Virus record (IMG/VR): IMGVR_UViG_3300046820_002137
Coordinates: 1 to 64,000 of that record
Length of the DNA: 64,000 bases
Strand: one strand, 5' to 3'
From: a virus
In this document: piece after piece, positions 1,270 to 47,965 of the stretch
How positions within the stretch are numbered: position 1 is the first letter of the stretch
Layout: each line of letters starts with the position of its first letter
Position numbers and translations under genes: made by a program
The notes under the pieces: generated by a model
What the model was told of the DNA's origin: nothing
Databases searched by the model: none
The model's input: only the letters and a program-made list of their open reading frames with translations

Positions 1270-1300
1270 AAAAAAAATGGAGATTATTCATCTCCATTTT
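1270..1300 (-). terminator. Intrinsic terminator overlapping the methyltransferase stop codon
   Basis: AAAATGGAGAT-tattc-ATCTCCATTTT inverted repeat followed by a U run on the minus strand. Confidence 0.6.
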
Positions 1301-2141
1301 CAAACTCTAAAACTTGTTGACTCTTTTGGTCAACGAAGGATTGTATCCTTTCTATAGAAATCTTAGTATAATTTTCAGAAAGTTCAATGCCAATCCATCT
1401 CCTGTCTAAAGTTTCCGCAGCTACACAACTTGTTCCGCTTCCATTGAATGGGTCTAGTATTATGTCATTCTTATATGACAATATCTTAATAGCCTTGGTT
1501 GGGATGTCCATTGAAAATGTCGCTTTGGTCATTGGTCTTGAGTCGTTTAGGTATTTCCATTGTCCAAACACAAGTTCCATGAATTCCTTTTTATCCTGTT
1601 CGGTATATAACATTTTTGTCTTACCTTCTTCAGTTGTAATTGGTTCTCCCTTCCATTGTGGTTCACCTTTAACTTTCTTGATATGGTTTTTTTTGTAAGC
1701 TAATATTACACATTCTTTTGGGTTATAGATATATGGACTTGATGGACTCATCCAACTACCCCAAGCGGTTGTCTTACTTCTATGAGGACTATCCTCCTCT
1801 AAGTCAACAATACCGAAGAATTTAAATCCAATTTGTTTCATCACCTGATAGACTTCAGATACAAAAAATATTCTACCACCCTTTTCTTGTCGGTTAATCT
1901 CATAAGGAATGTTCAAAGCAATTCTTCCGTCATCTTTTAAGACTTTATAGGCTTCTGTGAGCCAATTCTTGCTGAACTCAAGATACTCATTGATTTCCAT
2001 GTCATCATCATGAGTGTCATACTTAATGTTCACGCCATATGGAGGAGATGTCACAATCAAATCGACGAATGATTCGGGCATTTCTTTCATTACCTCGATA
2101 CAATCACCATTTATTACTTTATTTATATAGTTTTCAATCAT
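1284..2141 (-). CDS. DNA methyltransferase, N4-cytosine/N6-adenine beta class
   Basis: GDC, VTSPPY catalytic motif then ILDPFNGSGTS SAM-binding motif and WIGIE; likely start MIENYINK at 2141. Confidence 0.93.
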   Translation of the reverse strand: MIENYINKVINGDCIEVMKEMPESFVDLIVTSPPYGVNIKYDTHDDDMEINEYLEFSKNWLTEAYKVLKDDGRIALNIPYEINRQEKGGRIFFVSEVYQVMKQIGFKFFGIVDLEEDSPHRSKTTAWGSWMSPSSPYIYNPKECVILAYKKNHIKKVKGEPQWKGEPITTEEGKTKMLYTEQDKKEFMELVFGQWKYLNDSRPMTKATFSMDIPTKAIKILSYKNDIILDPFNGSGTSCVAAETLDRRWIGIELSENYTKISIERIQSFVDQKSQQVLEFENGDE

Positions 2142-2271
2142 CTTGTCTATTAATAATATTTTTTCTCCACCACTTTCCAAATTTACTTTTTGGTTTATAT
2201 GATATAAACCTATCAAAGTATAGAATACTAAAAACAAGTATAGTTGAAATTAAGTAGATTTTCCAAACCAT
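2134..2271 (-). CDS. Small membrane protein (45 aa)
   Basis: Manual translation MVWKIYLISTILVFSILYFDRFISYKPKSKFGKWWRKNIINRQDD; fills the gap and overlaps the MTase start. Confidence 0.6.
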   Translation of the reverse strand: MVWKIYLISTILVFSILYFDRFISYKPKSKFGKWWRKNIINRQDD

Positions 2272-3733: not shown

Positions 3734-5128
3734 TTACCCAATTCTCATTATATAGTAATGTTCATTATTGATATATTCCGTATCATAACTTCCGTCATAT
3801 GAAGCCAAAATCTGATACCCATCACTTTCTGCAAGTCCTTTGGCTAAAGAGTCCATATCAACATATTCACTAATATCCATACCGAATTCAGATAAAGAGC
3901 CTTTTGGGTCATTCATTTTATCTGATACCATTTCATCAATTTTTTCTTCAATCATATCCTCAGTTGGTTCCCCATTGGGTTGCATATTATCAATCTCCTC
4001 TTGTGAGCTATCAATATGACCTTTAATAATATCTATCTTTGACTGAATCTCATCATATCGTTTTCTGTACTCATCTGGGTCCTCAATCTCATCATTTAAG
4101 TTTTCTTGTTTTTGTTCTAATTTACTAATAACTCCTTCCGCCTTACTAATATATTCTTCGAGTTCCCGTTTTCTTTGTTCTTGTTCTTCTGAATCAGGTA
4201 ACTCACTTTCATCAAAATAAACGTCAATGTTACTCCTTACGTCATCATCATAAAAATCTTTGAAGAAATATTCAATTGCGTCGATATCTAAATGGTCGTC
4301 AATAAAATGGTCTCTTAAACCTTCAATACCGACCTCATCAAGGTAGTTTTTAGCGTACTCTAAGGCTGCTCTGTCCATTTCATATTCATCTCCAACTGCA
4401 AATTCTTGACCCTCTAAATCATCAATACCAATAACCTCAAACTGAGATAAACCGTAATAGCTATATTTCATTGATATTATACTATACACATCCGCCGAGT
4501 TTTGTTGTATTTCTTGAATTTTTTCCTCAACATCACTTATCTCATTCGCCAAGTCATCATCCTGACCTTCGGTTTCATTATATCTATTGGTTAAATCCTC
4601 CAAATCCGCTTTCAATCCCTCTAATTCTCCCTGTTTTTCACCTGTTATAGGTTTGATATCTCCATTACGGACCAAATGTTTAAATAAAGCTTGAGCCTTT
4701 AATCCATCATCATCTTCATTATCAATATCCCACTCATTATTTCTTCTTCTCTCATCGGCTTGATTTAGTTTTTCTTGTCGAATGGCCTCACGTCTTCTTC
4801 TATCTATCGGAGTTCCTCCATCCCATATGTAACCATTAACTTTAACGTCAGATAAATCATTAATTTTTGTGTTTCTAATATCTAATCTACCCTCAACATA
4901 TTTAACATTACCCAAAGAATCTGTTGGTGTGTCTGATAGGTCCAAATCACCGGTAATCCATATTGGTTTTCCTCCAAACATTTTGAGTTTACTAACACCT
5001 TTGCCATGATAACTTCCGAACTTCATTAGTTCTGTAAACTCCTCAGGTGAAATTTTGTAAAACTCTTCCTCACTTTGTTCTACCAATATATTCTTTACAG
5101 TATTTCTTAAACTTAGACTCTTTGACAT
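3734..5128 (-). CDS. Acidic coiled-coil protein with short LRR/beta-helix-like repeats; probable virion protein
   Basis: GDLDLSDT..SLGNVKYVEGRLDIRNTKI repeats; N-terminal ILVEQ motif; TATTTAT upstream; likely start MSKSLS at 5128. Confidence 0.7.
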   Translation of the reverse strand: MSKSLSLRNTVKNILVEQSEEEFYKISPEEFTELMKFGSYHGKGVSKLKMFGGKPIWITGDLDLSDTPTDSLGNVKYVEGRLDIRNTKINDLSDVKVNGYIWDGGTPIDRRRREAIRQEKLNQADERRRNNEWDIDNEDDDGLKAQALFKHLVRNGDIKPITGEKQGELEGLKADLEDLTNRYNETEGQDDDLANEISDVEEKIQEIQQNSADVYSIISMKYSYYGLSQFEVIGIDDLEGQEFAVGDEYEMDRAALEYAKNYLDEVGIEGLRDHFIDDHLDIDAIEYFFKDFYDDDVRSNIDVYFDESELPDSEEQEQRKRELEEYISKAEGVISKLEQKQENLNDEIEDPDEYRKRYDEIQSKIDIIKGHIDSSQEEIDNMQPNGEPTEDMIEEKIDEMVSDKMNDPKGSLSEFGMDISEYVDMDSLAKGLAESDGYQILASYDGSYDTEYINNEHYYIMRIG

Positions 5129-5219
5129 AATCATAAATATTTGTAAATTCAAATAAAATATTTACAATATACTCCAAATTTAGATATTTATGGTAAATAA
5201 ACGTTTAAAATAAAAAGAT

Positions 5220-5390
5220 ATGGGATGCGGGTGTAAAAACAAAGGTAATCAGGCTCAAGCTCAGCCTCAACCTCAGCCATTGAACCAGATTCAACCTCAG
5301 GCTCAACCACAACAAGCTCCACAACAGAGTAACAATCAAAACATTCAAGAGTCGATTAAAAAAGTTGTGGAAAAATATTACAGAAAATAA
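5220..5390 (+). CDS. Small MGCGC-motif, Gln/Pro-rich protein (56 aa)
   Basis: Manual translation MGCGCKNKGNQAQAQPQPQPLNQIQPQAQPQQAPQQSNNQNIQESIKKVVEKYYRK; TATTTAT upstream, terminator downstream. Confidence 0.8.
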   Translation: MGCGCKNKGNQAQAQPQPQPLNQIQPQAQPQQAPQQSNNQNIQESIKKVVEKYYRK

Positions 5391-5408
5391 TTTAATTTTT
5401 TGTACTTT

Positions 5409-5434
5409 AAAGGGGGTTTATAACCCCTTTTTTT
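5409..5434 (+). terminator. Intrinsic terminator
   Basis: GGGGTT-tat-AACCCC followed by a T run. Confidence 0.7.
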
Positions 5435-5490
5435 ATTTAAAGTATTTAGGATTTGAATTTTTTTGTTTATCTATTTCAAAAACATTTTAT

Positions 5491-6315
5491 ATGAAGTACA
5501 TTAATCCAAAATCGAGAAGAGGTATTGTGAATAAGTTTGCGGATTTTATTCTTTGTGAGATTCAAAAAGAAAAAAAATACAAAACAATAATTGAGATTTC
5601 AGACTTTAAAACCTTTTTGGTTGTTGCAGGAAAAACTGAGTCCAAAACTATTTTGGATTTAACTGAAATCAAGGAAAGATTTTATGAAGAAAATAAAGAG
5701 TTGATGGTTGACTTAAATTACGAAAGACTAAATGTAATTGATATAATTGAGTATGATAATATAGGATTTACTGGCACGTTTGAGTCTTATTTTGAATTTC
5801 ATAATACAATTCATCCTTATTTTCATGAAAAGGTGCTAAACTATGTATATAATCACATTGATGTTCAATATAATAGTTTAGACTTTAAAAAGGAATTAAT
5901 CTTTGATTTAGATTATGACCATTTGAATGAACCAAATTCTATGTTCAGTAGAAATTATATTTGCGTGTCGTCGGAATTCCCATATGGTTATAGTTTAGAT
6001 AATGGTAGAGCCCATCTTTATTACTCAGAATATATTTGTAACCAATTATTCTCATCCATTAAAACGGACAAAATAACTTTTAAAATTTCAGACAATAAAG
6101 ATGATAATGGTGATTTAGATATTCAAATTATCTCTAATTCACCTTATCTAACTGAAAAAATTAAATCTATGGTTTTGGATGTTTTTGATTTTAACATACA
6201 AAGATTCATTAATACCACTCTCAAGAAATATGATTTATCAAAAGAGATTGATAGTCAGTTAGAAACCAAACCATGGTTAAAAAAGGACCTAATTAACGAA
6301 TTATTTATTATCTAA
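5491..6315 (+). CDS. Divergent, probably inactive S-adenosylmethionine synthetase (MetK)-like protein
   Basis: Start MKYINPK at 5491; N- and C-terminal segments align by eye to MetK; catalytic motifs GHPDK, GAGDQG and GGGAFSGKD absent. Confidence 0.7.
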   Translation: [274 protein letters not shown]

Positions 6316-6836
6316 ACTCTTTTAGAATAAGATACGACTTGGTAAAAATCTTTTTTATCTTGACAATAATCACTAATCAAAATCAATAGATTTTTGAACA
6401 TAAAAGCGTTAGGTGTTTGTTTCTCACATCTAATGAATAATTCAATTAAAGTTGATACGAATTCAACTGAAAATTCGCCTAAATTATCTATTGTGAAATA
6501 CTTTTCACTAAAATAATCTTTATAAATTAATTGATAATTTTTTCTTTCTTCTTCATTATTAAAGGGTTCCATCTCATCATAAATCTCAATCCATTCATTA
6601 ACAAACTTACATAAATCATCAGGAGCAAATTTTGATTTGATAATTAAATCCACAATCCAATGTGTGTGAGATGGGGCTCTAAGTCGTTTGTTAGGTGCCT
6701 TATACTTAACAATAAAATCTAAATCAGGGTTCGCACCTCTCGAACCCTGATATATTACCACAATATTACCATCCTCCAATTCCCAAAAATTAATAGGTGT
6801 ATGGAGTTTACCATTTTTGTTAAAATTAAGACTCAT
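6312..6836 (-). CDS. Hypothetical protein
   Basis: 174 aa ORF coupled to the glutaredoxin gene; PSHTHWIVDL motif. Confidence 0.75.
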   Translation of the reverse strand: MSLNFNKNGKLHTPINFWELEDGNIVVIYQGSRGANPDLDFIVKYKAPNKRLRAPSHTHWIVDLIIKSKFAPDDLCKFVNEWIEIYDEMEPFNNEEERKNYQLIYKDYFSEKYFTIDNLGEFSVEFVSTLIELFIRCEKQTPNAFMFKNLLILISDYCQDKKDFYQVVSYSKRV

Positions 6837-7117
6837 TAACCAATGTGTTCTTTAATTATACTAACCGCTTTGTCCAATTCTTCATAATCTCTACCTGGCG
6901 CATACAAATGTGAAATAGGATTATTATTTGGCGATTCTATTACCATAAATGATGGTACAAAATCATTACTTGTTGCCTTAACAAACATATCATATTCATC
7001 TTTATTTTCGACTATGTCTCTATTAACAAATTCAATTTTTTCCTCTTTTAACATATTTTTGAACTGTTCACAGAAAGCACACCCTTTCATTGTAAATAAC
7101 ACAACTACCTTATCCAT
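6836..7117 (-). CDS. Glutaredoxin/thioredoxin-fold protein
   Basis: FTMKGCAFC active site and cis-Pro motif FVPSF. Confidence 0.85.
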   Translation of the reverse strand: MDKVVVLFTMKGCAFCEQFKNMLKEEKIEFVNRDIVENKDEYDMFVKATSNDFVPSFMVIESPNNNPISHLYAPGRDYEELDKAVSIIKEHIG

Positions 7118-7433
7118 TTAGTATACTATTAGCAAATTCTTTTATTTGTGATTCACCTAAAACACCTACTCTTGTAGATGATTCTTTACCGTTAGAAAAT
7201 GATTTAGTTGTTGGAATACTTCTAACTCCGTATCTTTGTGCAATTTCCCTATTTGAATCAACGTTTATGGTATAAAGAGATACTCCAAAATTTTCGTTAC
7301 GAAGTGATTGAGATACTCTTTCAAATGTTGGTTTCATCATTTTGCATGGTCCACACCAAGGGGCCCAAAATTCAACGACCATCTTTTCGCCGTTCTTTAA
7401 TTTTTGTTCAAATTGTTCTGTTGTTAATTCCAT
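7110..7433 (-). CDS. trxA: Thioredoxin
   Basis: FWAPWCGPCK and GVRSIPT motifs. Confidence 0.95.
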   Translation of the reverse strand: MELTTEQFEQKLKNGEKMVVEFWAPWCGPCKMMKPTFERVSQSLRNENFGVSLYTINVDSNREIAQRYGVRSIPTTKSFSNGKESSTRVGVLGESQIKEFANSILNG

Positions 7434-12040: not shown

Positions 12041-12883
12041 TTAAAAATAATTCATAATAAGTAGTTCCTCTCCCATATTTTGGGTCTGTCCTTTCTTAGC
12101 CGCGGCGGCCTTAGCGAACTCTTTCTTTTCCCACCTATATTGGTCTTCAGGAAACCACTCGTGCAAAAGTACGAAATCATAGTAAGATAACGAAAACTTT
12201 CCTTCAATAGTTTTCAACACATTTGCCAGTCTCTCGTGGTCGTCTCGGTCAAAATCGTGGTTTGAGTAGTAATTCTCGGTTTTCCAATACGGGGGGTCAA
12301 GATAAAAATAAGTTGTCGGACTATCAAATTCTTTTATAACATTTTCAAAGTCACCCAATCTAAAATGACTAATCTTATTGAAGTGTTCTACCCACTCAGG
12401 TTTTGATAGTTTGTCTCTGAATGTCAAATACTTTGACTTATACTTACCCTTCAAATCAATAAAAGAACTAGTCTCAGGTTTAGACCCACTGAATACTTGC
12501 GTTAGAACATAAGCATATTTTGCGGCAACATCGTAGTCAGGGTAGTTTATTGTAAATCCATCACCAAATATTTCTTTTTGGAATGTATTAAACTGTTCTC
12601 GGTAAATTGGTGGTGTCACTTCCTCTCCTTGTTGTTGACATGGTATTCTATTTACAGCAGATAACAAAACACCAGGGTTCTGTAAGCACATAAACAAGTT
12701 ATAGTTTAATGGATTGAAGTCGTTATAAACAACCCTTTTTAGTTTGGGGTATTGTTTCAAATCCATATTAAAGAAACACCAGAACATTCCTCCGAATGTT
12801 TCCACGTATGTTTCCATGTCAGTTGGGTAATATGGGACTATCCATTTACCTATTTTTGATTTTCCTCCTATGTAGCTTAGCAT
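12041..12883 (-). CDS. Dam-family (D12 class) DNA adenine methyltransferase
   Basis: YIGGKSK, YVETFGG, VYNDFN, FYLDPPY, LSY, ELLIMNY motifs; specificity not determinable. Confidence 0.92.
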   Translation of the reverse strand: MLSYIGGKSKIGKWIVPYYPTDMETYVETFGGMFWCFFNMDLKQYPKLKRVVYNDFNPLNYNLFMCLQNPGVLLSAVNRIPCQQQGEEVTPPIYREQFNTFQKEIFGDGFTINYPDYDVAAKYAYVLTQVFSGSKPETSSFIDLKGKYKSKYLTFRDKLSKPEWVEHFNKISHFRLGDFENVIKEFDSPTTYFYLDPPYWKTENYYSNHDFDRDDHERLANVLKTIEGKFSLSYYDFVLLHEWFPEDQYRWEKKEFAKAAAAKKGQTQNMGEELLIMNYF

Positions 12884-35275: not shown

Positions 35276-38200
35276 ATGACTAGTGTTTCAATAAACCAAA
35301 TAACGGGGTGTACTCCCCCATATGATATATACGTTTGTGACGTATATGGTAACCAATGCGTTTGGGTTTTATACGTCGACACTTTTGTACCTCCACCAAT
35401 TACTATAATATTACCGTCTCAATTTGATGACGCCCCCGCGGCGGGAGTTAAAATTGTCTCAATACTTACAGGTTGTGAGGACTTTGAAATCTGTACCTGT
35501 ATTCCTGAACCTACCCCAACTCCAGTACCTACTTTAACTCAAACGATTACGTCAACTATTACTCCTACGGTTACTCAAACTTCAACAATAACCTCAACAC
35601 AAACTAAAACTCAAACTCAAACTCCAACCCAAACTTCAACAATAACACCGACTAATACTCAAACTCAAACAATAACCCCCACTAAAACTCAAACTCAAAC
35701 TCAAACAATAACTCCGACTGTTACAAAAACAGTTACACAAACTAAAACTCAAACTCAAACAATAACACAGACACCAACAATAACAAAAACACAGACTCAA
35801 ACAGTAACACAAACACCAACAGTTACAAAAACAGTTACACAAACTAAAACACAGACTCAAACAGTAACACAAACTCAGACAATAACTCAAACTCAAACAA
35901 TAACTCAAACAATAACTCCAACTATTACATTAACCCAAACTATCACAGTAACCCCAACAATAACAAAAACTCAAACACCAACTGTGACCCAAACTATAAC
36001 TCAAACTATAACAATAACTCCTACAATAACCAAAACTAAAACACCAACCAAAACTCAAACACAAACTATTACAATAACCAAAACAAAAACATCAACAATA
36101 ACACCAACTCCTGATGTTTCTCCAACAGTAACTCCAACTATAACTCCAACTATAACTAAAACTTCAACTATAACTCCAACTATAACTAAAACTTCAACTA
36201 TAACTGTAACTCCAACCATAACCCCAACTATAACTCCAACTGTAACTCCAACCATAACTAAAACACAAACACAAACTGTCACTATCACACCAACAACAAC
36301 TCCAACAATAACTAAAACTATAACACAAACTGTTACAAAAACTCAAACATCTACAGTGACACAAACTGTAACATCTACCATAACACCTACCATAACACCT
36401 ACCATAACTAAAACTCAAACACAAACAATAACACCTACAAAAACAATAACACCTACAAAAACAAAAACACAAACTGTGACATCAACTCCTGATGTTTGTT
36501 ATTGTTATACTGTTTTAAAGAAAAATCCATCAGCAGGTTGTAGTTTATATTGGACTGATTGTAGTGGGGTGTTGCAGTTAAGTGGTACCACTTCATTACC
36601 TGATGTTGAATTTTATCTGTGTGTTAGAAACAAGGATATAGGATTAAATGGTCTTTGTCCGATTGACTCGGTTGAATTGACCGAAGGAAATGTTTGTTTT
36701 TCTTATAACGACTGTCAACCAATAACCCCAACACCAACTAAAACTTCAACATTGACCCCTACTGTAACTCCAAGTCAAACTTCTCCTCCCGGAATTTCAG
36801 AATGCTCGGTAATATTAAACAGTACAAATCCAGTAAGTGCTTACACATATGACGTTGGTTCGTCAACTTTAATACCAATTAATATACCATCAATACTTTC
36901 ATCTCAAGATATTTCTCACATATGGCTAGGCTCCTCTGGGTATCTTTGGATGTATAGTAATGGAGGTCAAATAATTAGACAGTGGGCAATTTCAAGTTTA
37001 GACCCGTTTGTTATAAGTCCAACATTTACTGATATTAGTTATCCACCAGGCTTCCCTGGATTAGGTAATGGTTTAGGATGTATCGATTCAACAACTTTAA
37101 TTTCTTCAACCGCATCTAATCCGTCAAGTATTATTGAAATCGATATTTCAACTACTCCATTTACCTATACAACTTTAGTAACATTACCGTCGGGGTATGT
37201 AATTTCCGGTGATATATTGTTATCTACAACAGGTCAATTAATTTTCACAGTTAGAAGGCCTATTCCATTACCCGCACAATCATTCATATATCAATATGAT
37301 TACCCATCAATGAGTAATGAATTGATAATCGATATTACTTCAACAATCTCATCTCCTTTAGGTATTTTCCAAGATAGTGGTAATTTTTATATCGCCTCTT
37401 CAAATGGAACAATATATGAGGTAAGTACATCTTCTCCATATACCACAACTCAAGTTGATTCCGTTTCGTCTACTTTGAATGGTGCATCTCAATCTCCACA
37501 ATGTATAACAACTAGTTTCCAACCAATACCCCCTTCATTTTTCGTGGTAAGTGTTGCTTCAGGTTTAGACACCACAGAATCTTGTGAGAATTGGGTTAAC
37601 CCAATTAATAGATTTAATGTTTATTCGTCACCTTATGGTTCAGGCTCAATAACCGCTAATACTTCTTATTTTTATTCGGATTCATCTTTAACCACACCAT
37701 TACCATTTGGAAGTAGAGTTTCTGATGGCATTAAATCATATGAGATTGGGTCACTAGGATTAGTTATTAGTGATTCGACATGTGTAACCCCAACTCCAAC
37801 AATGACAAATACCATTACTCCAACTCAAACTATGACCATTACGTCAACAAATACCATTACTCCAACTCAGACCACAACTCCAACAGTGACAAATACTATT
37901 ACTTCAACTCAGACCACAACTCCAACAGTGACAAATACTATTACTCCAACTCAAACTATCACTAAAACAGTAACAAATACGATTACCCCAACCCCGACTA
38001 TGACTCTAACAGTAACAAATACTGTAACTAATACAACAACAATTACTCCAACATTTTATCCACCAGAAAAAGCTTTCTTTAGTGGGTGTTGTAAAGAATA
38101 CGGAAATATTTTAATTTATGATATACCATTTTCTGTTTTTTCAGGTTTGGTTGATAATACTGTTTACTATATTAATAACACATTCTTCAACGGATGTGCA

Positions 38201-41200
38201 ACATATAAAACAAATTTATCAAGTTCAATATTTGAATACCAATATTCTATAACAGATTCATTTTCATCTCAAACAGATTGTAATTCTTGTTCGGTAAATT
38301 CATCTGTATTTTGTCCTTCGCCAACACCAACGCCAACTAAAACATCTACAGTTACACCAACACCAACTAAAACATCTACGGTAACACCAACCCTAACTAA
38401 GACATCTACAGTAACTCCAACCCCTGCGTACTGTTTAGAAACTTGTGATATTATTTATACAAATTCAGTAAATGTAACTTATCTATATAGACCAGCAACA
38501 GATACTAGTTTCCTTCTTTTACCAAATCCTGGATTTTTAGTGAGTGGTTTAGCTCACTCCGCTAACAAATTATGGATGAATACTTCAAATTCAGCATTAA
38601 TACGAGAATGGGATATTACATTATGTCGTTTTTCATACACACCAAGTGCCACAATTAACACTCCTTGGAATGTAGGTGGGGGATTATTTGCCATAAATGA
38701 CTCGACATTAATTGTTTCTAGAACATACACCAATCAAACTGGTGATGTTATATACGAATTAGACGTTTCGGTCGCACCTCCATTATCCACTTTAAAATTC
38801 TCATTAGGATTTGAAAGAAAATTACAGGATATGGTATTAACAACAACTAACAAATTAATAACTATAACATTCAATATTAACACCTTAGTTTGTTTTTTGA
38901 ATCAATTTAATTATTCCACAAATGTAAATGAATTACAAATAACTTTACCTTGGGTTGCCGCTGGTTTATTCCAATATAATAACGAACTATACCTTGTAAC
39001 TCAAAGTGGAGGAAATTATTATAAGATAGATTTAACTTTTCCATTTAACTTAACTTTTGTTCAAAACTTAGCATTTTCAACAAATGACTTATCTCAAATA
39101 TACGGTTGCATAACATTACAATTTGAAATACCTACCCCTACTCCAACATTGACCCAAACTCCAACCATAACCCCAACCATAACTACAACAATAACAACAA
39201 CTCTGACTCCTACTCCAACATTGACCCAAACTCAATTACCAGTTATTTCGGAATGTTCGGTTTTATTAAACAGTTCTTCACCCGCTAGCGCATACACCTA
39301 TAATTTAGGTTCCTCTGTTGTAGTACCATTAAATCTACCAGATATAATTTCTTCACAAGATATATCTCATTTTTGGTCAGGTTCAACAGGATATATTTGG
39401 TTATATAATAATGTTTTAGATGTTATTAGACAATGGGAAATAACAAGTTTAAATCCATTTTTAGTTAATCCTTCTTATACAGATATTTCATATGATGCAG
39501 GTATAAGCGCATTAGGTAATGGATTAGGATGTATAAACTCAACCACACTAATATCTTCAATTGCCTCTAACCCATCACAAATTATAACTATCGATATTTC
39601 AACTAGTCCATTTACTTACACAACAATATATGAATTACCAAGTAATTATGTAATTGCCGGTGATTTACTATTAACAACTAATAATAAATTAATTTTTACC
39701 GCAAGATTAGTTAGTGTACCATCTCAGTCATTTGTTTATCAATATGATTTTCCATCTATGACTAATGAAGTTGAGGTGAATATTACTTCAACAATTACTT
39801 CTCCTTTAGGATTATTCCAAGATAGCGGTAATTTGTATGTAGTATCCTCTTCAGGTCAAATGTATCAAATAAATAATAATTATCCTTATAATTTAACTCT
39901 TATTGATTCGGTATCAACTAACTTAAATGGGGCATCACAATCACCTCAATGTATAACCACTGGATTAACTTACTATGAACCATTACAATTGACTTTTGAG
40001 AATTGTTGTGATGGGACAATATTATACGTTTATAACATACCTTTCTCCACCGCATCTACTATTAGTATTGGACAAACCTATTATATAGAAACAGATAATT
40101 ATTCAGGTTGTTATTTTAATGTTGTAGAACAAACTCCAAATTATATAAGTCAGTTTGTAGATATATCAACATTATTCTTAAATTGTATTGATTGTACAAA
40201 TTTATATAATTGTCCTGGAGTTACTCCAACCCCAACTACAACTGTTACATCAACAAATACCCCAACTATGTCAATCACACCAACAATAACTTTAAGCCCA
40301 ACTATAACTAAAACTGTAACCGTAACAAATACACCTAATGTTTGTTATTGTTATACTTTATTAAAGGAAAACCCTTCAATAAGTTGTGATTTATATTGGA
40401 CAGATTGTGATGGAGTATTAAAGGTGAGTGGTACAACTTCTCTACCTGATGGTAATTTTTATTTATGTGTTCAAAATAAAGTAATAGGTACTTCAGGTTC
40501 ATGTTTTGCAAATGCTGTTGAATTTACTGAAGGTGGAATTTGTTTCTCAGATATCGATTGTTTACCTCCGACCCCAAGTCCAACTACAACCCCCACCATT
40601 ACACCAACAGTAACAAGAACTCCAACGATGAGTATTACACCTACAATAACTTTAAGTCCAACTATAACACAAACCAACACTCAGACCATAACAATTACCC
40701 CGAGTCCATCTTCTTACCCTATTTTAGCCTTTGTTAGTGTATGGTCAGGTTCATCAGTTACGTTACCTTACAATGGAATTGGTACTTATACAGGAACAAT
40801 TTATTGGGGGGATGGTTCTGTATCTGCAAATACGTTTGCAAATAGGACTCATACGTACTCAGGTAGTGGTACATGGACAATTGTGATTGATGGTACTATA
40901 ACTGGATGGTCATCAGGAAATGCTCCAACTCAAAGTAATAAATTATTAGAAATAAAACAGTGGGGTAAAGTTAAAAATGTTTTTGGTCAGTCAGCCTCAT
41001 TTAGTGGATGTAGTAACTTGGTATTAACAGGCGTTACAGACACTTATGACTTTAATGGTGTAACTAATACTGTAAATATGTTCCCAGGTTGTACTTCAAT
41101 AACGACAATAAACAATATATCAAGTTGGAATGTTTCCGGTGTAACTAATCTTGGTAACATGTTTAATGGATGTATTAATTTTAATGATGATATTACTACT

Positions 41201-41503
41201 TGGGATGTTTCTAATGTAATTTCAGTATCTAACATGTTATATAGTGCAACTTCATTTAATCAAAATTTAGGTAGTTGGGATATTTCTAATGTATCTGGTT
41301 TTAGTGACTTTATGGCCTACTGTGGAATATCAACTGCGAATTATGATAATACTTTGGTAGGATGGGCTAATTTAACATTACAAACTGGAAGGTATTTTGG
41401 AGCGTATGGTTTAACATATACATCCGCAGGTGCGGGCGGAACGGCTAGAAGTTCCATAATCTCAAATTATTCTTGGAGCTTTGTGGGAGACTCTGGTGTA
41501 TAA
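35276..41503 (+). CDS. Giant modular Thr-rich adhesin/fibre-like protein with C-terminal BspA/DUF285 repeats
   Basis: 2075 aa; T-x stalks, three propeller-like repeats, Cys modules, IYWGDG PKD-like domain, WNVSGVTNLGNMF / WDVSNV repeats. Confidence 0.8.
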   Translation: MTSVSINQITGCTPPYDIYVCDVYGNQCVWVLYVDTFVPPPITIILPSQFDDAPAAGVKIVSILTGCEDFEICTCIPEPTPTPVPTLTQTITSTITPTVTQTSTITSTQTKTQTQTPTQTSTITPTNTQTQTITPTKTQTQTQTITPTVTKTVTQTKTQTQTITQTPTITKTQTQTVTQTPTVTKTVTQTKTQTQTVTQTQTITQTQTITQTITPTITLTQTITVTPTITKTQTPTVTQTITQTITITPTITKTKTPTKTQTQTITITKTKTSTITPTPDVSPTVTPTITPTITKTSTITPTITKTSTITVTPTITPTITPTVTPTITKTQTQTVTITPTTTPTITKTITQTVTKTQTSTVTQTVTSTITPTITPTITKTQTQTITPTKTITPTKTKTQTVTSTPDVCYCYTVLKKNPSAGCSLYWTDCSGVLQLSGTTSLPDVEFYLCVRNKDIGLNGLCPIDSVELTEGNVCFSYNDCQPITPTPTKTSTLTPTVTPSQTSPPGISECSVILNSTNPVSAYTYDVGSSTLIPINIPSILSSQDISHIWLGSSGYLWMYSNGGQIIRQWAISSLDPFVISPTFTDISYPPGFPGLGNGLGCIDSTTLISSTASNPSSIIEIDISTTPFTYTTLVTLPSGYVISGDILLSTTGQLIFTVRRPIPLPAQSFIYQYDYPSMSNELIIDITSTISSPLGIFQDSGNFYIASSNGTIYEVSTSSPYTTTQVDSVSSTLNGASQSPQCITTSFQPIPPSFFVVSVASGLDTTESCENWVNPINRFNVYSSPYGSGSITANTSYFYSDSSLTTPLPFGSRVSDGIKSYEIGSLGLVISDSTCVTPTPTMTNTITPTQTMTITSTNTITPTQTTTPTVTNTITSTQTTTPTVTNTITPTQTITKTVTNTITPTPTMTLTVTNTVTNTTTITPTFYPPEKAFFSGCCKEYGNILIYDIPFSVFSGLVDNTVYYINNTFFNGCATYKTNLSSSIFEYQYSITDSFSSQTDCNSCSVNSSVFCPSPTPTPTKTSTVTPTPTKTSTVTPTLTKTSTVTPTPAYCLETCDIIYTNSVNVTYLYRPATDTSFLLLPNPGFLVSGLAHSANKLWMNTSNSALIREWDITLCRFSYTPSATINTPWNVGGGLFAINDSTLIVSRTYTNQTGDVIYELDVSVAPPLSTLKFSLGFERKLQDMVLTTTNKLITITFNINTLVCFLNQFNYSTNVNELQITLPWVAAGLFQYNNELYLVTQSGGNYYKIDLTFPFNLTFVQNLAFSTNDLSQIYGCITLQFEIPTPTPTLTQTPTITPTITTTITTTLTPTPTLTQTQLPVISECSVLLNSSSPASAYTYNLGSSVVVPLNLPDIISSQDISHFWSGSTGYIWLYNNVLDVIRQWEITSLNPFLVNPSYTDISYDAGISALGNGLGCINSTTLISSIASNPSQIITIDISTSPFTYTTIYELPSNYVIAGDLLLTTNNKLIFTARLVSVPSQSFVYQYDFPSMTNEVEVNITSTITSPLGLFQDSGNLYVVSSSGQMYQINNNYPYNLTLIDSVSTNLNGASQSPQCITTGLTYYEPLQLTFENCCDGTILYVYNIPFSTASTISIGQTYYIETDNYSGCYFNVVEQTPNYISQFVDISTLFLNCIDCTNLYNCPGVTPTPTTTVTSTNTPTMSITPTITLSPTITKTVTVTNTPNVCYCYTLLKENPSISCDLYWTDCDGVLKVSGTTSLPDGNFYLCVQNKVIGTSGSCFANAVEFTEGGICFSDIDCLPPTPSPTTTPTITPTVTRTPTMSITPTITLSPTITQTNTQTITITPSPSSYPILAFVSVWSGSSVTLPYNGIGTYTGTIYWGDGSVSANTFANRTHTYSGSGTWTIVIDGTITGWSSGNAPTQSNKLLEIKQWGKVKNVFGQSASFSGCSNLVLTGVTDTYDFNGVTNTVNMFPGCTSITTINNISSWNVSGVTNLGNMFNGCINFNDDITTWDVSNVISVSNMLYSATSFNQNLGSWDISNVSGFSDFMAYCGISTANYDNTLVGWANLTLQTGRYFGAYGLTYTSAGAGGTARSSIISNYSWSFVGDSGV
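35507..36490 (+). repeat. Low-complexity coding repeat, Thr at almost every second residue
   Basis: ACN-xxx hexamer periodicity encoding TQTQT / TPTIT / TKTVT. Confidence 0.9.
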
Positions 41504-44569: not shown

Positions 44570-47500
44570 TTAAGTAATTACTACTTGACAATAATTACAT
44601 CCACTAATTACCGCGTTCGCCAGTGTGTAATTTTCAACCGCCTTAGAACTGTAGCAATAGTTAGAGATATTTTTAACTATCGTGGTAGTAGTTTCTACAT
44701 TAATAGAATCACCTGAAATCATGTAGACAGTGTTCCAATTCTCAGTAGAAGCCGTAATGTATTTAGAATTACTTTGGCAGCCTGCGGCAAAATTAGTTCC
44801 AGTAGATGTACTTGAACCGCTTGAACTTATCGCTTGTGGAACGTTGTTCAATTTTAATATGGAGTTAGTTGTAAGTGTGGATGCGGTTTGAGATGGCGAT
44901 GTATCAAACGTATTGGTATGTAAAACATCAAATATAATAGTCGTACCTGTTGGTAAGGACGGTGTGACGTTTACTATTGTATTATATTGTTTTGTAAGTG
45001 TGGTTGTGGTATTCGAAACTATAGATTGACTAGTTGTTAAATATAAATTGTATACGGTTATGTTTTGAGCAGAGGTTAATGTAATTTTTTGTGTAGTTGT
45101 TGCACCACTTAAGTCTTTACCTATCACAATATAATCACCACCTTTTAGTCCGTTAAAAATTGGGTAACTCTTATAAGTTGTTCCATTGTCTATTGAATAC
45201 TGATATGGGGGAGTTCCTCCTGTTACATTAAACACGATGGAACCATTAGATTCTTGTGTTGGGTTATTTTGAGATATTTTCATTCCTAATGTTGGATTAT
45301 ATGTACATAATCCTTGTGAAATTGTAAGGTCATACGATGACCCTGATATTGTATAAATACCAAATGGACTAACCGGATTGTGAGTCGCCTCAGATAAGAA
45401 CCCTGTCGAACCCGTTACCCCACTAGTCTCCCATTTTGTGGTATCGGTGTTAAAATATAATACCCAATCATCCCCTGTCTCACCACATGGTAATTGACCA
45501 GTCCAACTTGCTTGACCATTTATTTCACCATTATAAGTTAATTCAAAAATGTCCTCTCCACATTCAGACGGATTATCGAATGATGCACAAACATCACCAC
45601 TATAACATAAACCTTCGAAAACTCTAGCCGTTATTGTTGAATAGGTTGACCCTATAACCCCCCAACCCGTTACTGGTGGCGACTTAGGACTATAGTTTAA
45701 TATTTTATATGATTCCCCATAAAATCCTTGGATAAACCAATAAGGTTGTTTACTATCATTAACCCAATAAATTGAATAATCGCCACTGTTATCAACCCAA
45801 CTTGGTTTACCATTAATTAATCTTTGGTTATCATTAAATTGATATTGATTTGGTGTTCCATCAATTGTTATTGTAACACATAATTTTGGTTCGGGTGATA
45901 ATGATGTTGGCGAAATGGATAAAGTTGATGTGAAATTTTGAGGTCCTGAAACAACACAGACTGTAACTGCCGTAAAATCATAGTAATAGTCAGTAGTTGT
46001 TGCGGTGTATTCTCCAGGTAATAATTGGTATAAATTTGGTCCACTTTGCCCATTACTCCATGTTGTAAGATATGGTGGGGTTCCTCCAGTTATTGTTAAT
46101 GTTGCAGTTCCATCACCAACTACAGATTGTGAAGAAGTTGTAGAACATATCACCCCCATGGGATATAAAACAATCGGAGCACATTCATTACCTAATAAGT
46201 AATAAGTACCACATTGATTAGTTCCACTTACAGATGGATATAATGTTGTAGGGTCAGGGTCAGGTGGGTCACAACCTTGTAAAACGCTAGTAACTGTAGT
46301 TGCCGTACACGCGGAACAATTAATAAAATAATTAGACTGAAATAGATTAACACTAGCATCATAAATGATTGATGATGGAGGTATAGCGGTTCCATATACC
46401 TCGCAGCACCCTGTAAAATGACGCATTTCTAAATAATACGACTCACCAGGTATTGGTATTTTATTTTGTAAGGATTGAGCTACAGGTTGAACTCCAGAAC
46501 TTAATGTAAAATTATTTGTTGGGAAATTTTGTACCCCGAAAAATGAACTTGGGTTTCCCGAATCATCATCACAAATTTTAAAATAAACAGGAGGGTTTGA
46601 ACCATAGGAAGTACTAAACCAATCACTAGCACTTATACAAGTAGTTGGAGTTGAGTCCTGCCATTCATAAACAGTACCAACCGGATAAGTTGAATTTATA
46701 TTTAATATACTTAATAAGGTATTAGTTGACACTTCCCTACATTCCCACCAAAATTCAATATCATTCCAAAATATAATACCGTTTATATTATTATTACCGT
46801 TTTTTAATGTAAATTCAAAGGCATTTCTACCTCCAATTATACCCGCATCTGAAGCGTTAACAATTCCACATTGTGAATACACAACTAATAATGTATTAGA
46901 CGCAGGTGGTGTTGGTCCACCTCCAGTTGGAGTTGGGGTCTGTGGTGGTGTTGGTGTTATTGGAGGTGTTGACCCTCCTCCTCCCCCTGTTGGTGGTGTT
47001 ATTGTTGGAGTTGGTGTTGGGGTACCACCTGGTGGTACCGCCCCCATTGAATTTAATAGGGGTTCTCTAGCTCCTCCAGGTGCGAAAAGAGCTAAAGACC
47101 TTGATACTTGCCCCGGTGAAAACATAAACATACAAGCACTACGTGTATAGTCCATGTAATTCATCGTCATTTCAATTGGATTACCAGGGCAACTAGAATA
47201 GTGAGGATAAGCTGGGCATCCTGAGTTTGGTCCATCGTGTTCTGGTGTATCACTAACCCCATCACTAGCTCCACACCCACTACCTCCCCATATATGTTTT
47301 AAATTTAACCAGTGTCCTATTTCATGTACAGCAATCCTACCAATGCCGTATATAGAGTTAGACGGGTTTGGATTCGATATACTACCAACTGAAAAATATG
47401 ATATAACTATACCGTCACGTTCAGGTGACCCTCCCGGATAAGGGGCGTAACCACCTAAACCAGGTTCTAAAGCACACACCCAAATATTTAAATAACTGTC

Positions 47501-47965
47501 TCTATCCCAAGCATCAAATCCACCATCTGAAAAAAATCTAGGGTCATTTGGACCGTCAAAATAATCCAAATTAGTAGTTCTTCTCTGTATACCAGTTGTA
47601 GGGTCACCATTTGGGGCTCTTGACGCAATAGTAAATTGTATACCCATGTTACCCGCCGGTTGGAATATTGGTGGTACGTCAACTATATCAGGGTTTGTTG
47701 CACTAAAATCTAAATTTAATTGGTCTATTTGTGCTTGTAATAAATCATAGGAAACATTTTGTTCCGTTGTTTTATATATAACATGGAAAACTACAGGTAT
47801 TGTAATTATCTGAGTTGAAGTGTAGGAAGGATTAATTGCTAAAAATGCCGTTGTGAAATTTTCAACCGCTGTTTTTCCAGACGCGTAACTAGGGTCAACT
47901 AAGTTTAAATAATCCTCTTGAGCGTCTAATCCACAAGGTAAAGATATTTCAGTAAAACTACTCAT
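44570..47965 (-). CDS. M43 (pappalysin/ulilysin-type) zinc metalloprotease fused to a SprB-repeat structural protein
   Basis: IPVVFHVI, QIDQLNLDF, YLNIWV, HEIGHWLNLKH, DTP, NYMDYT Met-turn; GGTPPY..WSNG repeats. Confidence 0.88.
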   Translation of the reverse strand: MSSFTEISLPCGLDAQEDYLNLVDPSYASGKTAVENFTTAFLAINPSYTSTQIITIPVVFHVIYKTTEQNVSYDLLQAQIDQLNLDFSATNPDIVDVPPIFQPAGNMGIQFTIASRAPNGDPTTGIQRRTTNLDYFDGPNDPRFFSDGGFDAWDRDSYLNIWVCALEPGLGGYAPYPGGSPERDGIVISYFSVGSISNPNPSNSIYGIGRIAVHEIGHWLNLKHIWGGSGCGASDGVSDTPEHDGPNSGCPAYPHYSSCPGNPIEMTMNYMDYTRSACMFMFSPGQVSRSLALFAPGGAREPLLNSMGAVPPGGTPTPTPTITPPTGGGGGSTPPITPTPPQTPTPTGGGPTPPASNTLLVVYSQCGIVNASDAGIIGGRNAFEFTLKNGNNNINGIIFWNDIEFWWECREVSTNTLLSILNINSTYPVGTVYEWQDSTPTTCISASDWFSTSYGSNPPVYFKICDDDSGNPSSFFGVQNFPTNNFTLSSGVQPVAQSLQNKIPIPGESYYLEMRHFTGCCEVYGTAIPPSSIIYDASVNLFQSNYFINCSACTATTVTSVLQGCDPPDPDPTTLYPSVSGTNQCGTYYLLGNECAPIVLYPMGVICSTTSSQSVVGDGTATLTITGGTPPYLTTWSNGQSGPNLYQLLPGEYTATTTDYYYDFTAVTVCVVSGPQNFTSTLSISPTSLSPEPKLCVTITIDGTPNQYQFNDNQRLINGKPSWVDNSGDYSIYWVNDSKQPYWFIQGFYGESYKILNYSPKSPPVTGWGVIGSTYSTITARVFEGLCYSGDVCASFDNPSECGEDIFELTYNGEINGQASWTGQLPCGETGDDWVLYFNTDTTKWETSGVTGSTGFLSEATHNPVSPFGIYTISGSSYDLTISQGLCTYNPTLGMKISQNNPTQESNGSIVFNVTGGTPPYQYSIDNGTTYKSYPIFNGLKGGDYIVIGKDLSGATTTQKITLTSAQNITVYNLYLTTSQSIVSNTTTTLTKQYNTIVNVTPSLPTGTTIIFDVLHTNTFDTSPSQTASTLTTNSILKLNNVPQAISSSGSSTSTGTNFAAGCQSNSKYITASTENWNTVYMISGDSINVETTTTIVKNISNYCYSSKAVENYTLANAVISGCNYCQVVIT

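Follow-up and report, generated by a model that had tools for sequence, protein, structure and literature searches.

A compact relative of S-adenosylmethionine synthetase, apparently without its chemistry, is a core gene of uncultured freshwater jumbo phages

Introduction

S-adenosylmethionine (SAM) synthetase, also called methionine adenosyltransferase (MAT) or MetK (EC 2.5.1.6), is the closest described relative of the virus gene analyzed here, which lies at positions 5,491 to 6,315 of a 64,000-nucleotide stretch that we call the window. The window corresponds to positions 1 to 64,000 of IMG/VR virus record IMGVR_UViG_3300046820_002137, which is 120,573 bp long and has a CheckV completeness of 41%. 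The enzyme is defined by three Pfam families (PF00438, PF02772 and PF02773) and represented by the structures 8bb1_A, 7lnn and 1xra of the Escherichia coli enzyme and 6rjs of the Ureaplasma enzyme. According to PMC8727953, its active site is located in the dimer interface and is built from residues of both chains, with the SAM contacts of the E. coli enzyme contributed by Glu55, Gln98 and Ile102 of one chain and by His14, Asp163, Arg229, Phe230 and Asp238 of the other. The same paper describes archaeal MATs as highly divergent yet active, with an active-site interface that has diverged and is functional. Among phage proteins, the SAMase of T3 is described as cleaving SAM and inhibiting SAM synthesis (10.1101/2023.02.27.530186; title of PDB entry 8bb1).

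The protein encoded by the virus gene, hereafter the MAT-like protein, has the fold and the colinear terminal blocks in common with MetK. It differs from MetK in having only ~12% identity to it, in the replacement of the His-Pro-Asp (HPD) and GAGDQG motifs and of the Lys-rich phosphate loop, and in a middle region that is halved or, in some family members, absent. With the archaeal MATs it shares a MAT fold that has survived extreme sequence divergence, but those enzymes, going by their published description, keep catalysis, whereas the MAT-like family has lost the alignable catalytic residues. The common ground with T3 SAMase is a hypothesized target only, namely the SAM supply of the host. 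T3 SAMase, which also binds and inhibits MetK of its host, has an unrelated fold and a known enzymatic mechanism and is a small accessory early protein, unlike the core MAT-like gene, and we found neither similarity nor an equivalent activity linking the MAT-like protein to it. Within the text that they cover, full-text literature searches returned no published description of the MAT-like family. An initial annotation of the window, made by eye, had described the protein as a dead mimic of MetK that might act on the host enzyme or be a repurposed scaffold.

Results

Profile and structure comparisons point to a MAT fold

Searches with the MAT-like protein alone were uninformative. It gave no Pfam family at E ≤ 10, no PHROG match, no MAT model (TIGR01034/metK included) at E ≤ 1 in an NCBIfam scan and a chance match only in a sequence search of the PDB. 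The best BLASTP alignment to E. coli MetK (taken from NC_000913.3) had an E-value of 0.30, was in the wrong register and was not significant, tblastn against 50,697 phage records found no match, and the best ESM Atlas score, 0.78, was under the useful range. On its own, the by-eye similarity to MetK is within chance level.

Two alignments of the family were used in what follows: A1, of 50 homologues, which served for profile searching and for the AlphaFold2 model, and A2, which covers the wider family down to 20% identity. When the A1 profile was run against 177,635 PDB sequences it produced two matches only, both to the Ureaplasma methionine adenosyltransferase (E 0.021 and 0.022). The matching blocks are colinear in the two proteins, with N-terminal residues 12–64 aligned to 20–73 and C-terminal residues 171–242 aligned to 263–336. 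A comparison of A1 with E. coli MetK alone by hhalign placed residues 171–234 on MetK 271–336 (E 0.085); the hhalign runs give no full residue map, and their C-terminal block alone is usable. The C-terminal family S-AdoMet_synt_C (PF02773) is the commonest among the weak matches of the individual members, appearing below threshold in 12 of the 50 with a best E-value of 0.003, and its model also matches the MAT-like gene itself in three of five complete relatives (E 0.0015–0.009). The blocks aligned by HMMER and hhalign are those in which the initial annotation had seen a resemblance to MetK at both protein ends; the Pro-Trp...Asp tail at the C-terminus resembles MetK by eye only.

The AlphaFold2 model of the MAT-like protein has a mean predicted local distance difference test (pLDDT) score of 92.3 and a predicted template modeling (pTM) score of 0.90, with 220 of the 274 residues at or above a pLDDT of 90. 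A Foldseek search of the PDB with this model returned 165 chains at E ≤ 0.001, and the matches listed (27 rows from ranks 1–48) are all MAT, with E-values of 2e-12 to 4e-11, a probability of 1.00 and TMq of 0.56–0.64. VIA-align found 167 PDB chains at Z ≥ 8; against residues 8–381 of E. coli MetK it aligned 263 of the 274 residues with a Z-score of 18.4 and a root-mean-square deviation of 4.6. We hold the likeness to MetK to be confirmed because of this profile and structure evidence, not because of pairwise similarity: the profile search of the PDB found MAT and nothing else, and the structural matches are strong, as would be expected of the MetK fold that had been proposed. The model thus predicts a true MAT-fold relative in which all three parts of the fold, beta-alpha-beta-beta-alpha-beta units that together make one flat sheet face, are kept, the middle unit being missing in the family members of ~230 amino acids (aa).

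By sequence the family falls outside every defined test for MetK membership, and the MAT-like protein is not above the curated cut-offs of PF00438, PF02772, PF02773 or the NCBIfam metK model. Because the MetK scaffold is kept and the sequence tests fail, the family is best regarded as a new, virus-specific and putatively non-catalytic branch of the MAT-fold superfamily.

The residues of the SAM synthetase reaction are replaced

MetK residues are given below in the literature numbering, which is that of the full E. coli MetK sequence minus 1. We take Asp16, Lys17, Lys165, Lys265, Lys269 and Asp271 to be the catalytic residues of MetK. In the profile alignment Ile12 stands opposite the Ile that follows Gly-His-Pro-Asp-Lys, which places Lys7-Ser8-Arg9-Arg10-Gly11 on that motif, just as had been read by eye (GHPDK replaced by KSRRG). 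His14, Asp16 and Lys17 of MetK are in this alignment replaced by Ser8, Arg10 and Gly11, respectively. Ser8 is conserved in 94% of A1, and position 10 looks variable when the alignment is read by eye. At the C-terminal block hhalign sets Asn171-Gly172-Arg173 opposite Val-Asp271-Arg of MetK, and ungapped extension of this alignment replaces Lys265 by Gly166, Lys269 by Asp170 and Asp271 by Gly172. The Gly-Gly-Gly-Ala-Phe-Ser-Gly-Lys-Asp phosphate loop has given way to a motif characteristic of the family, Ser161-x-Phe-Pro-x-Gly166-x-Ser168. Neither GAGDQG nor GGGAFSGKD occurs in the sequence of the MAT-like protein, and the loss of both motifs that had been annotated therefore stands.

The alignable SAM contacts are likewise not retained, with His14 replaced by Ser8 and Glu55 by Lys48, at a position that, by eye, varies among relatives. 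The other contacts belong to loops or to the shortened middle, where no equivalents can be placed; Asp163, Arg229 and Phe230 belong to the middle region. Between the N- and C-terminal blocks there are ~58 residues (98–155) as against ~118 in MetK, and in total length the protein falls 110 aa short of E. coli MetK. Residues 98–155 form one helix and four short strands in the AlphaFold2 model. The A2 members of ~230 aa are without roughly residues 110–150, meaning that the middle unit is deleted. As judged from these alignments, the MAT-like protein is almost certainly no SAM synthetase.

The gene is under purifying selection

An intact MAT-like open reading frame (ORF) is present in 77 of 80 related viral loci retrieved from IMG/VR. 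The three other loci were dropped by length and contig-end filters; in L009, which is among these three, the gene appears as two ORFs. The 77 full-length, stop-free ORFs comprise 47 distinct coding sequences. Ratios of nonsynonymous to synonymous substitution (dN/dS, Nei–Gojobori) were computed for the 152 of 1,081 pairs with dS between 0.05 and 1.5; their median is 0.23 (range 0.04–0.51), close pairs give 0.05–0.12, and the set of the 25 closest spans 0.05–0.22. The ORFs are intact and dN/dS is low; the MAT-like gene is therefore under strong purifying selection and is not decaying, and the initial description of an intact ORF, as opposed to one in neutral decay, holds.

Gly47, Gly166 and Asp230 are invariant in A2, whose members are 20–86% identical, and Asn14, Asp84, Ser161 and Ser226 are conserved in at least 90% of it. 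Conservation of Ser8, Tyr88, Pro164 and Ser168 is also high in both A1 and A2. The best-conserved residues lie where helix 1 begins and in the former phosphate loop, the positions of the HPD motif and phosphate loop with which MetK holds triphosphate, and Asp84 and Tyr88 are in or adjoin the strand 81–87.

The start codon used here is well founded. A longer alternative frame opens at a TTG at 5365, which is an unlikely start because Met occupies the aligned start position in 78 of 78 full-length coding sequences (the window and the 77 loci) and because a terminator-like hairpin with a T-run (Table 1) falls within the extension that the TTG would add. On this sequence comparison, the gene truly starts at the ATG at 5491.

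A core gene of an uncultured jumbo phage lineage

Homologue searching gave 409 related proteins at E ≤ 1e-3, nearly all of 268–278 aa; not one bears a name beyond "hypothetical" or has a precomputed Pfam domain. A profile search of 1.84 billion representatives clustered at 50% identity recovered 325 at E ≤ 0.001, 222 at 1e-10 and 89 at 1e-30; the 150 representatives listed span 69–288 aa, and none among them is of MetK length. The same gene was found at 280 places in IMG/VR, on contigs of up to 322 kb. A combined pattern and tblastn scan of 185,579 prokaryote species, each represented by a single genome, did not find the family, which is confined to viral and metagenome contigs. A search for longer, fused forms of the protein found none, which by the search's own rating is weak evidence, and the structural database BFVD holds one relative, an uncharacterized 208-aa protein of an uncultured phage.

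Five relatives of 282–322 kb are 96–100% complete, two of them with terminal repeats. Neither these five nor the 120.6-kb source record contain a MetK match above cut-off, which answers the question raised with the initial annotation of whether an intact metK is present elsewhere in the genome. DNA of close relatives is found in freshwater and lake metagenome runs, with pieces 90–99% alike in the three runs examined.

The behavior of the gene among relatives was followed by counting its neighbors in the 80 related loci and then by a reverse test anchored on the neighboring 262-aa gene. The best 80 of 182 loci carrying the anchor were taken, some of them on the same contigs as in the first set, and in 45 of these the relevant flank is 3.6 kb or longer. 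We conclude that the gene behaves as a core gene because it is present in 45 of these 45 testable loci. Counter-defence genes, by comparison, are usually patchy in presence. The MAT-like gene is accordingly a fixed core gene of an uncultured freshwater jumbo phage lineage with genomes of ~280–320 kb.

Some other products of the window bear on the host. At 44570–47965 (minus strand) is a fiber-like 1131-aa protein with a Peptidase_M43 domain and SprB repeats, and at 35276–41503 (plus strand) a 2075-aa protein ending in DUF285. These two proteins are weak hints at a Bacteroidota host, and the lineage probably infects Bacteroidota. A tRNA search of the window found none, and the closest isolate-phage matches to an SbcC-like protein are below 26% identity.

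The gene neighborhood

The gene order around the MAT-like gene is 262-aa (minus), 472-aa coiled-coil (minus), small ORF (plus), MAT-like (plus), an optional 174-aa gene (minus), glutaredoxin (minus), thioredoxin (minus), 106-aa (minus) and a 576-aa PcfJ-like gene (minus). Coordinates are collected in Table 1, with the counts for the first two genes; among the same 80 loci glutaredoxin is present in 68, thioredoxin and the 106-aa gene each in 67 and the PcfJ-like gene in 65. The 262-aa protein has 45 invariant residues across 23 homologues and a model with a pLDDT of 81.4 and a helix-plus-sheet structure, which has no fold match in the PDB at E ≤ 0.001 and yields no functional lead. Pfam, PHROG and NCBIfam searches of the 472-aa, 174-aa, 106-aa and 56-aa neighbors gave nothing or coiled-coil noise only. 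Both SAM-dependent DNA methyltransferases in Table 1 lie within 7 kb of the MAT-like gene. In 15 related loci an extra ORF of 195–205 aa sits between the 472-aa homologue and the small ORF, with an N-terminus that looks by eye like that of a GIY-YIG homing endonuclease; the insert is seen in L019–L022, L025, L029, L048, L050, L053, L073, L078 and L080–L082, and is not in the window.

Table 1. Features of the MAT-like locus, in window coordinates
Feature	Position	Strand	Evidence or remark
N6_N4_Mtase DNA methylase, SAM-dependent	1284-2237	-	E 1e-35; 38/80 loci within fetched flanks
Gene of unknown function, 262 aa	2904-3692	-	78/80 loci; divergently transcribed
Acidic coiled-coil gene, 472 aa	3734-5152	-	78/80 loci; divergently transcribed
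Small ORF, 56 aa	5220-5390	+	Constant same-strand upstream neighbor of MAT-like gene
GC-rich hairpin and T-run, intrinsic-terminator-like	5409-5431	+	Between small ORF and MAT-like gene
Conserved upstream region, probable own promoter/leader of MAT-like gene	5432-5490	+	TATTTA ~50 nt before ATG
MAT-like gene, 274 codons and stop; compact, apparently non-catalytic SAM-synthetase-fold protein	5491-6315	+	Translation
Convergent gene, 174 aa	6312-6836	-	33/80 loci; 4-nt overlap with MAT-like stop (6312-6315)
Glutaredoxin (93 aa) and adjoining thioredoxin (107 aa)	6836-7433	-	Domain matches
D12/Dam-class DNA methylase, SAM-dependent	12041-12883	-	E 5e-18; 30/80 loci within fetched flanks

The small ORF upstream encodes a peptide with a conserved Met-Gly-Cys-Gly-Cys-Lys-Asn-Lys start, a variable middle rich in Gln, Pro and Thr, and a conserved basic, helix-like C-terminus, and has no match in Pfam, PHROG or NCBIfam. 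An ORF of the same type is found upstream in 79 of the 80 loci, 72 with the strict pattern and seven with a variant C-terminal motif, the exception being L018; of the 72 strict matches, 68 end 92–109 nucleotides (nt) ahead of the MAT-like ATG. The isoelectric point (pI) of the peptide is 9.6, whereas the MAT-like proteins are acidic, with a median pI of 4.9 and a net charge of about -11.

The two genes are separated in the relatives by a GC stem of varying sequence followed by a T-run, which is always present and shows a compensatory pattern when read by eye. Five terminator-like sites were found in the region as against 0.4 expected, and an Rfam scan of 5100–6400 gave no match. TATTTA occurs between -70 and -35 in 36 of 41 distinct upstream sequences of the MAT-like gene. 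The related motif TATTTA[T/A] precedes 33 of the 100 genes called in the 120.6-kb record at a distance of up to 90 nt, mostly 5–35 nt upstream of large genes; at the MAT-like gene the element is farther from the ATG (about -50) than at most of these. On the plus strand the small ORF and the MAT-like gene make up an island surrounded by minus-strand genes, and they are probably made as separate transcripts. The 262-aa, 472-aa and glutaredoxin genes have short contigs in the one RNA run, whereas the MAT-like gene has none, in a kind of data in which contigs cannot show absence and the library may contain DNA.

Discussion

We have described a large virus family with the predicted fold of MetK and without its recognizable chemistry. 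We favor, with moderate confidence, the view that the MAT-like protein is a viral pseudoenzyme and binding module that works through the remodeled face of the former active site. It would be a MetK descendant that has shrunk to 274 aa, keeping the fold and losing the residues that bind ATP, methionine and metal, and it would make no SAM. It would act by binding, through a surface made of the remodeled former active-site and dimer face, in which the key residues would be Ser8, Asn14, Asp84, Tyr88 and the Ser161-x-Phe-Pro-x-Gly166-x-Ser168 motif. Because the best-conserved residues cluster on the former active-site face, we think that this face is still a working surface. The partner would more plausibly be a phage-internal protein or a small ligand than host MetK, and the first candidate for an acidic protein of this kind would be the co-conserved basic 56-aa peptide. 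Of the options in the initial annotation, that of a repurposed scaffold fits best.

The retention of a catalytically dead copy of an enzyme has a parallel in the "prozyme" of trypanosomatid S-adenosylmethionine decarboxylase (AdoMetDC), a dead paralogue that is kept and pairs with the live enzyme of the same genome. The analogy would extend to the concept of a dead copy under selection, whereas the live partner of the MAT-like protein would have to be the enzyme of the host.

Several points weigh against a binding module of this sort. The assignment of the conserved patch to the former active-site face is drawn from the alignment and from strand periodicity only, and the conserved residues could be purely structural. 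At 12% identity the pairing of individual residues across the middle region is not reliable, and in local mode hhalign aligned the family to 81 mostly gammaproteobacterial MetKs with an E-value of only 0.13. The hairpin terminator between the two genes means that the peptide and the MAT-like gene may be functionally independent. The remodeled pocket might, finally, have gained a new catalytic activity.

This last possibility we consider unlikely, if still credible. The MAT scaffold would then carry out some other reaction in its new pocket, with a nucleoside, a nucleotide or the Cys-Gly-Cys peptide as conceivable substrates. The peaks of conservation in the former phosphate loop and where helix 1 begins (Ser161, Pro164, Gly166, Ser168, Asn14 and Ser8), the near-invariant Asp84 on a strand, the strong selection and the constant pairing with the peptide gene would all suit an enzyme. 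There is however no signature of metal or phosphate binding, all of the basic residues with which MAT holds triphosphate have been lost, some members do without the middle region, and no fused or neighboring enzyme points to a pathway.

A little less probable is a role as a poison or regulatory subunit of host MetK, in which the dead MAT-fold chain would pair with MetK monomers across the flat sheet and inactivate or modulate SAM synthesis, with weaker SAM-dependent restriction or bacteriophage exclusion (BREX), or a retuned methyl supply, as the consequence. The predicted MAT fold, and with it the sheet of the dimer face, is common to both proteins, the MAT active site requires both chains (PMC8727953), the phage has no real metK, and T3 SAMase is, as described, a phage precedent for hitting the SAM supply (10.1101/2023.02.27.530186). 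Against this, the phage itself needs SAM, because two SAM-dependent DNA methyltransferases are encoded nearby, an objection that a regulator stimulating or redirecting MetK would escape. The MAT-like gene is moreover a fixed core gene and not a variable accessory, which argues mildly against SAM depletion or counter-defence, and a divergence to ~20% identity together with loss of a third of the fold fit poorly with the highly conserved interface of MetK. MetK dimers are stable, which would largely limit a poison subunit to freshly synthesized chains. The four points are not decisive. A complex prediction for the MAT-like protein (with A1) and the Swiss-Prot entry METK_BACTN gave an ipSAE of 0.00 in two runs made without controls, and so speaks neither for nor against binding.

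We are similarly doubtful that the MAT-like protein and the Cys-Gly-Cys peptide form one module, which would handle a peptide or ligand or would jointly seize the SAM metabolism of the host through MetK.

Somewhat more doubtful again is a purely structural or scaffold role, as a component of the virion, of assembly or of a replication compartment, unrelated to SAM or any ligand. The core-gene behavior, the fixed synteny and an upstream TATTTA like the motif before many large genes of the genome would be in keeping with such a role. The gene is nevertheless outside the structural gene block, among thioredoxin, glutaredoxin, methyltransferases and unknowns, and such a role would not account for the polar residues that are conserved where the active site used to be.

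A still-working minimal SAM synthetase with unconventional residues is scarcely credible, for although the predicted fold is complete in the 274-aa form and archaeal MATs are described as keeping activity despite strong divergence (PMC8727953), every alignable catalytic position is now taken by a residue that can bind neither phosphate nor metal, GAGDQG and GGGAFSGKD are absent, the middle is halved or deleted and no MAT model reaches its cut-off.

Among the solved structures compared here, a single enzyme, nearly universal and with one reaction, accounts for the MAT fold, all of the Foldseek and VIA-align matches listed being MAT. This fold appears to be kept under strong selection, without the chemistry, in a large family that is virus-only and has 325 representatives at 50% identity. 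This suggests that the MAT scaffold is re-usable, and the members lacking a third of the fold provide a natural deletion series. If the partner were host MetK or SAM, the family would represent a new phage route to control of methyl supply; with the Cys-Gly-Cys peptide or some other ligand as the partner, the MAT fold would have gained a new function. Should the protein and the peptide be one module, this would be a new use by jumbo phages of a dead copy of a universal metabolic enzyme. The MAT-like gene is in addition a clean marker for an abundant, uncultured freshwater jumbo phage lineage.

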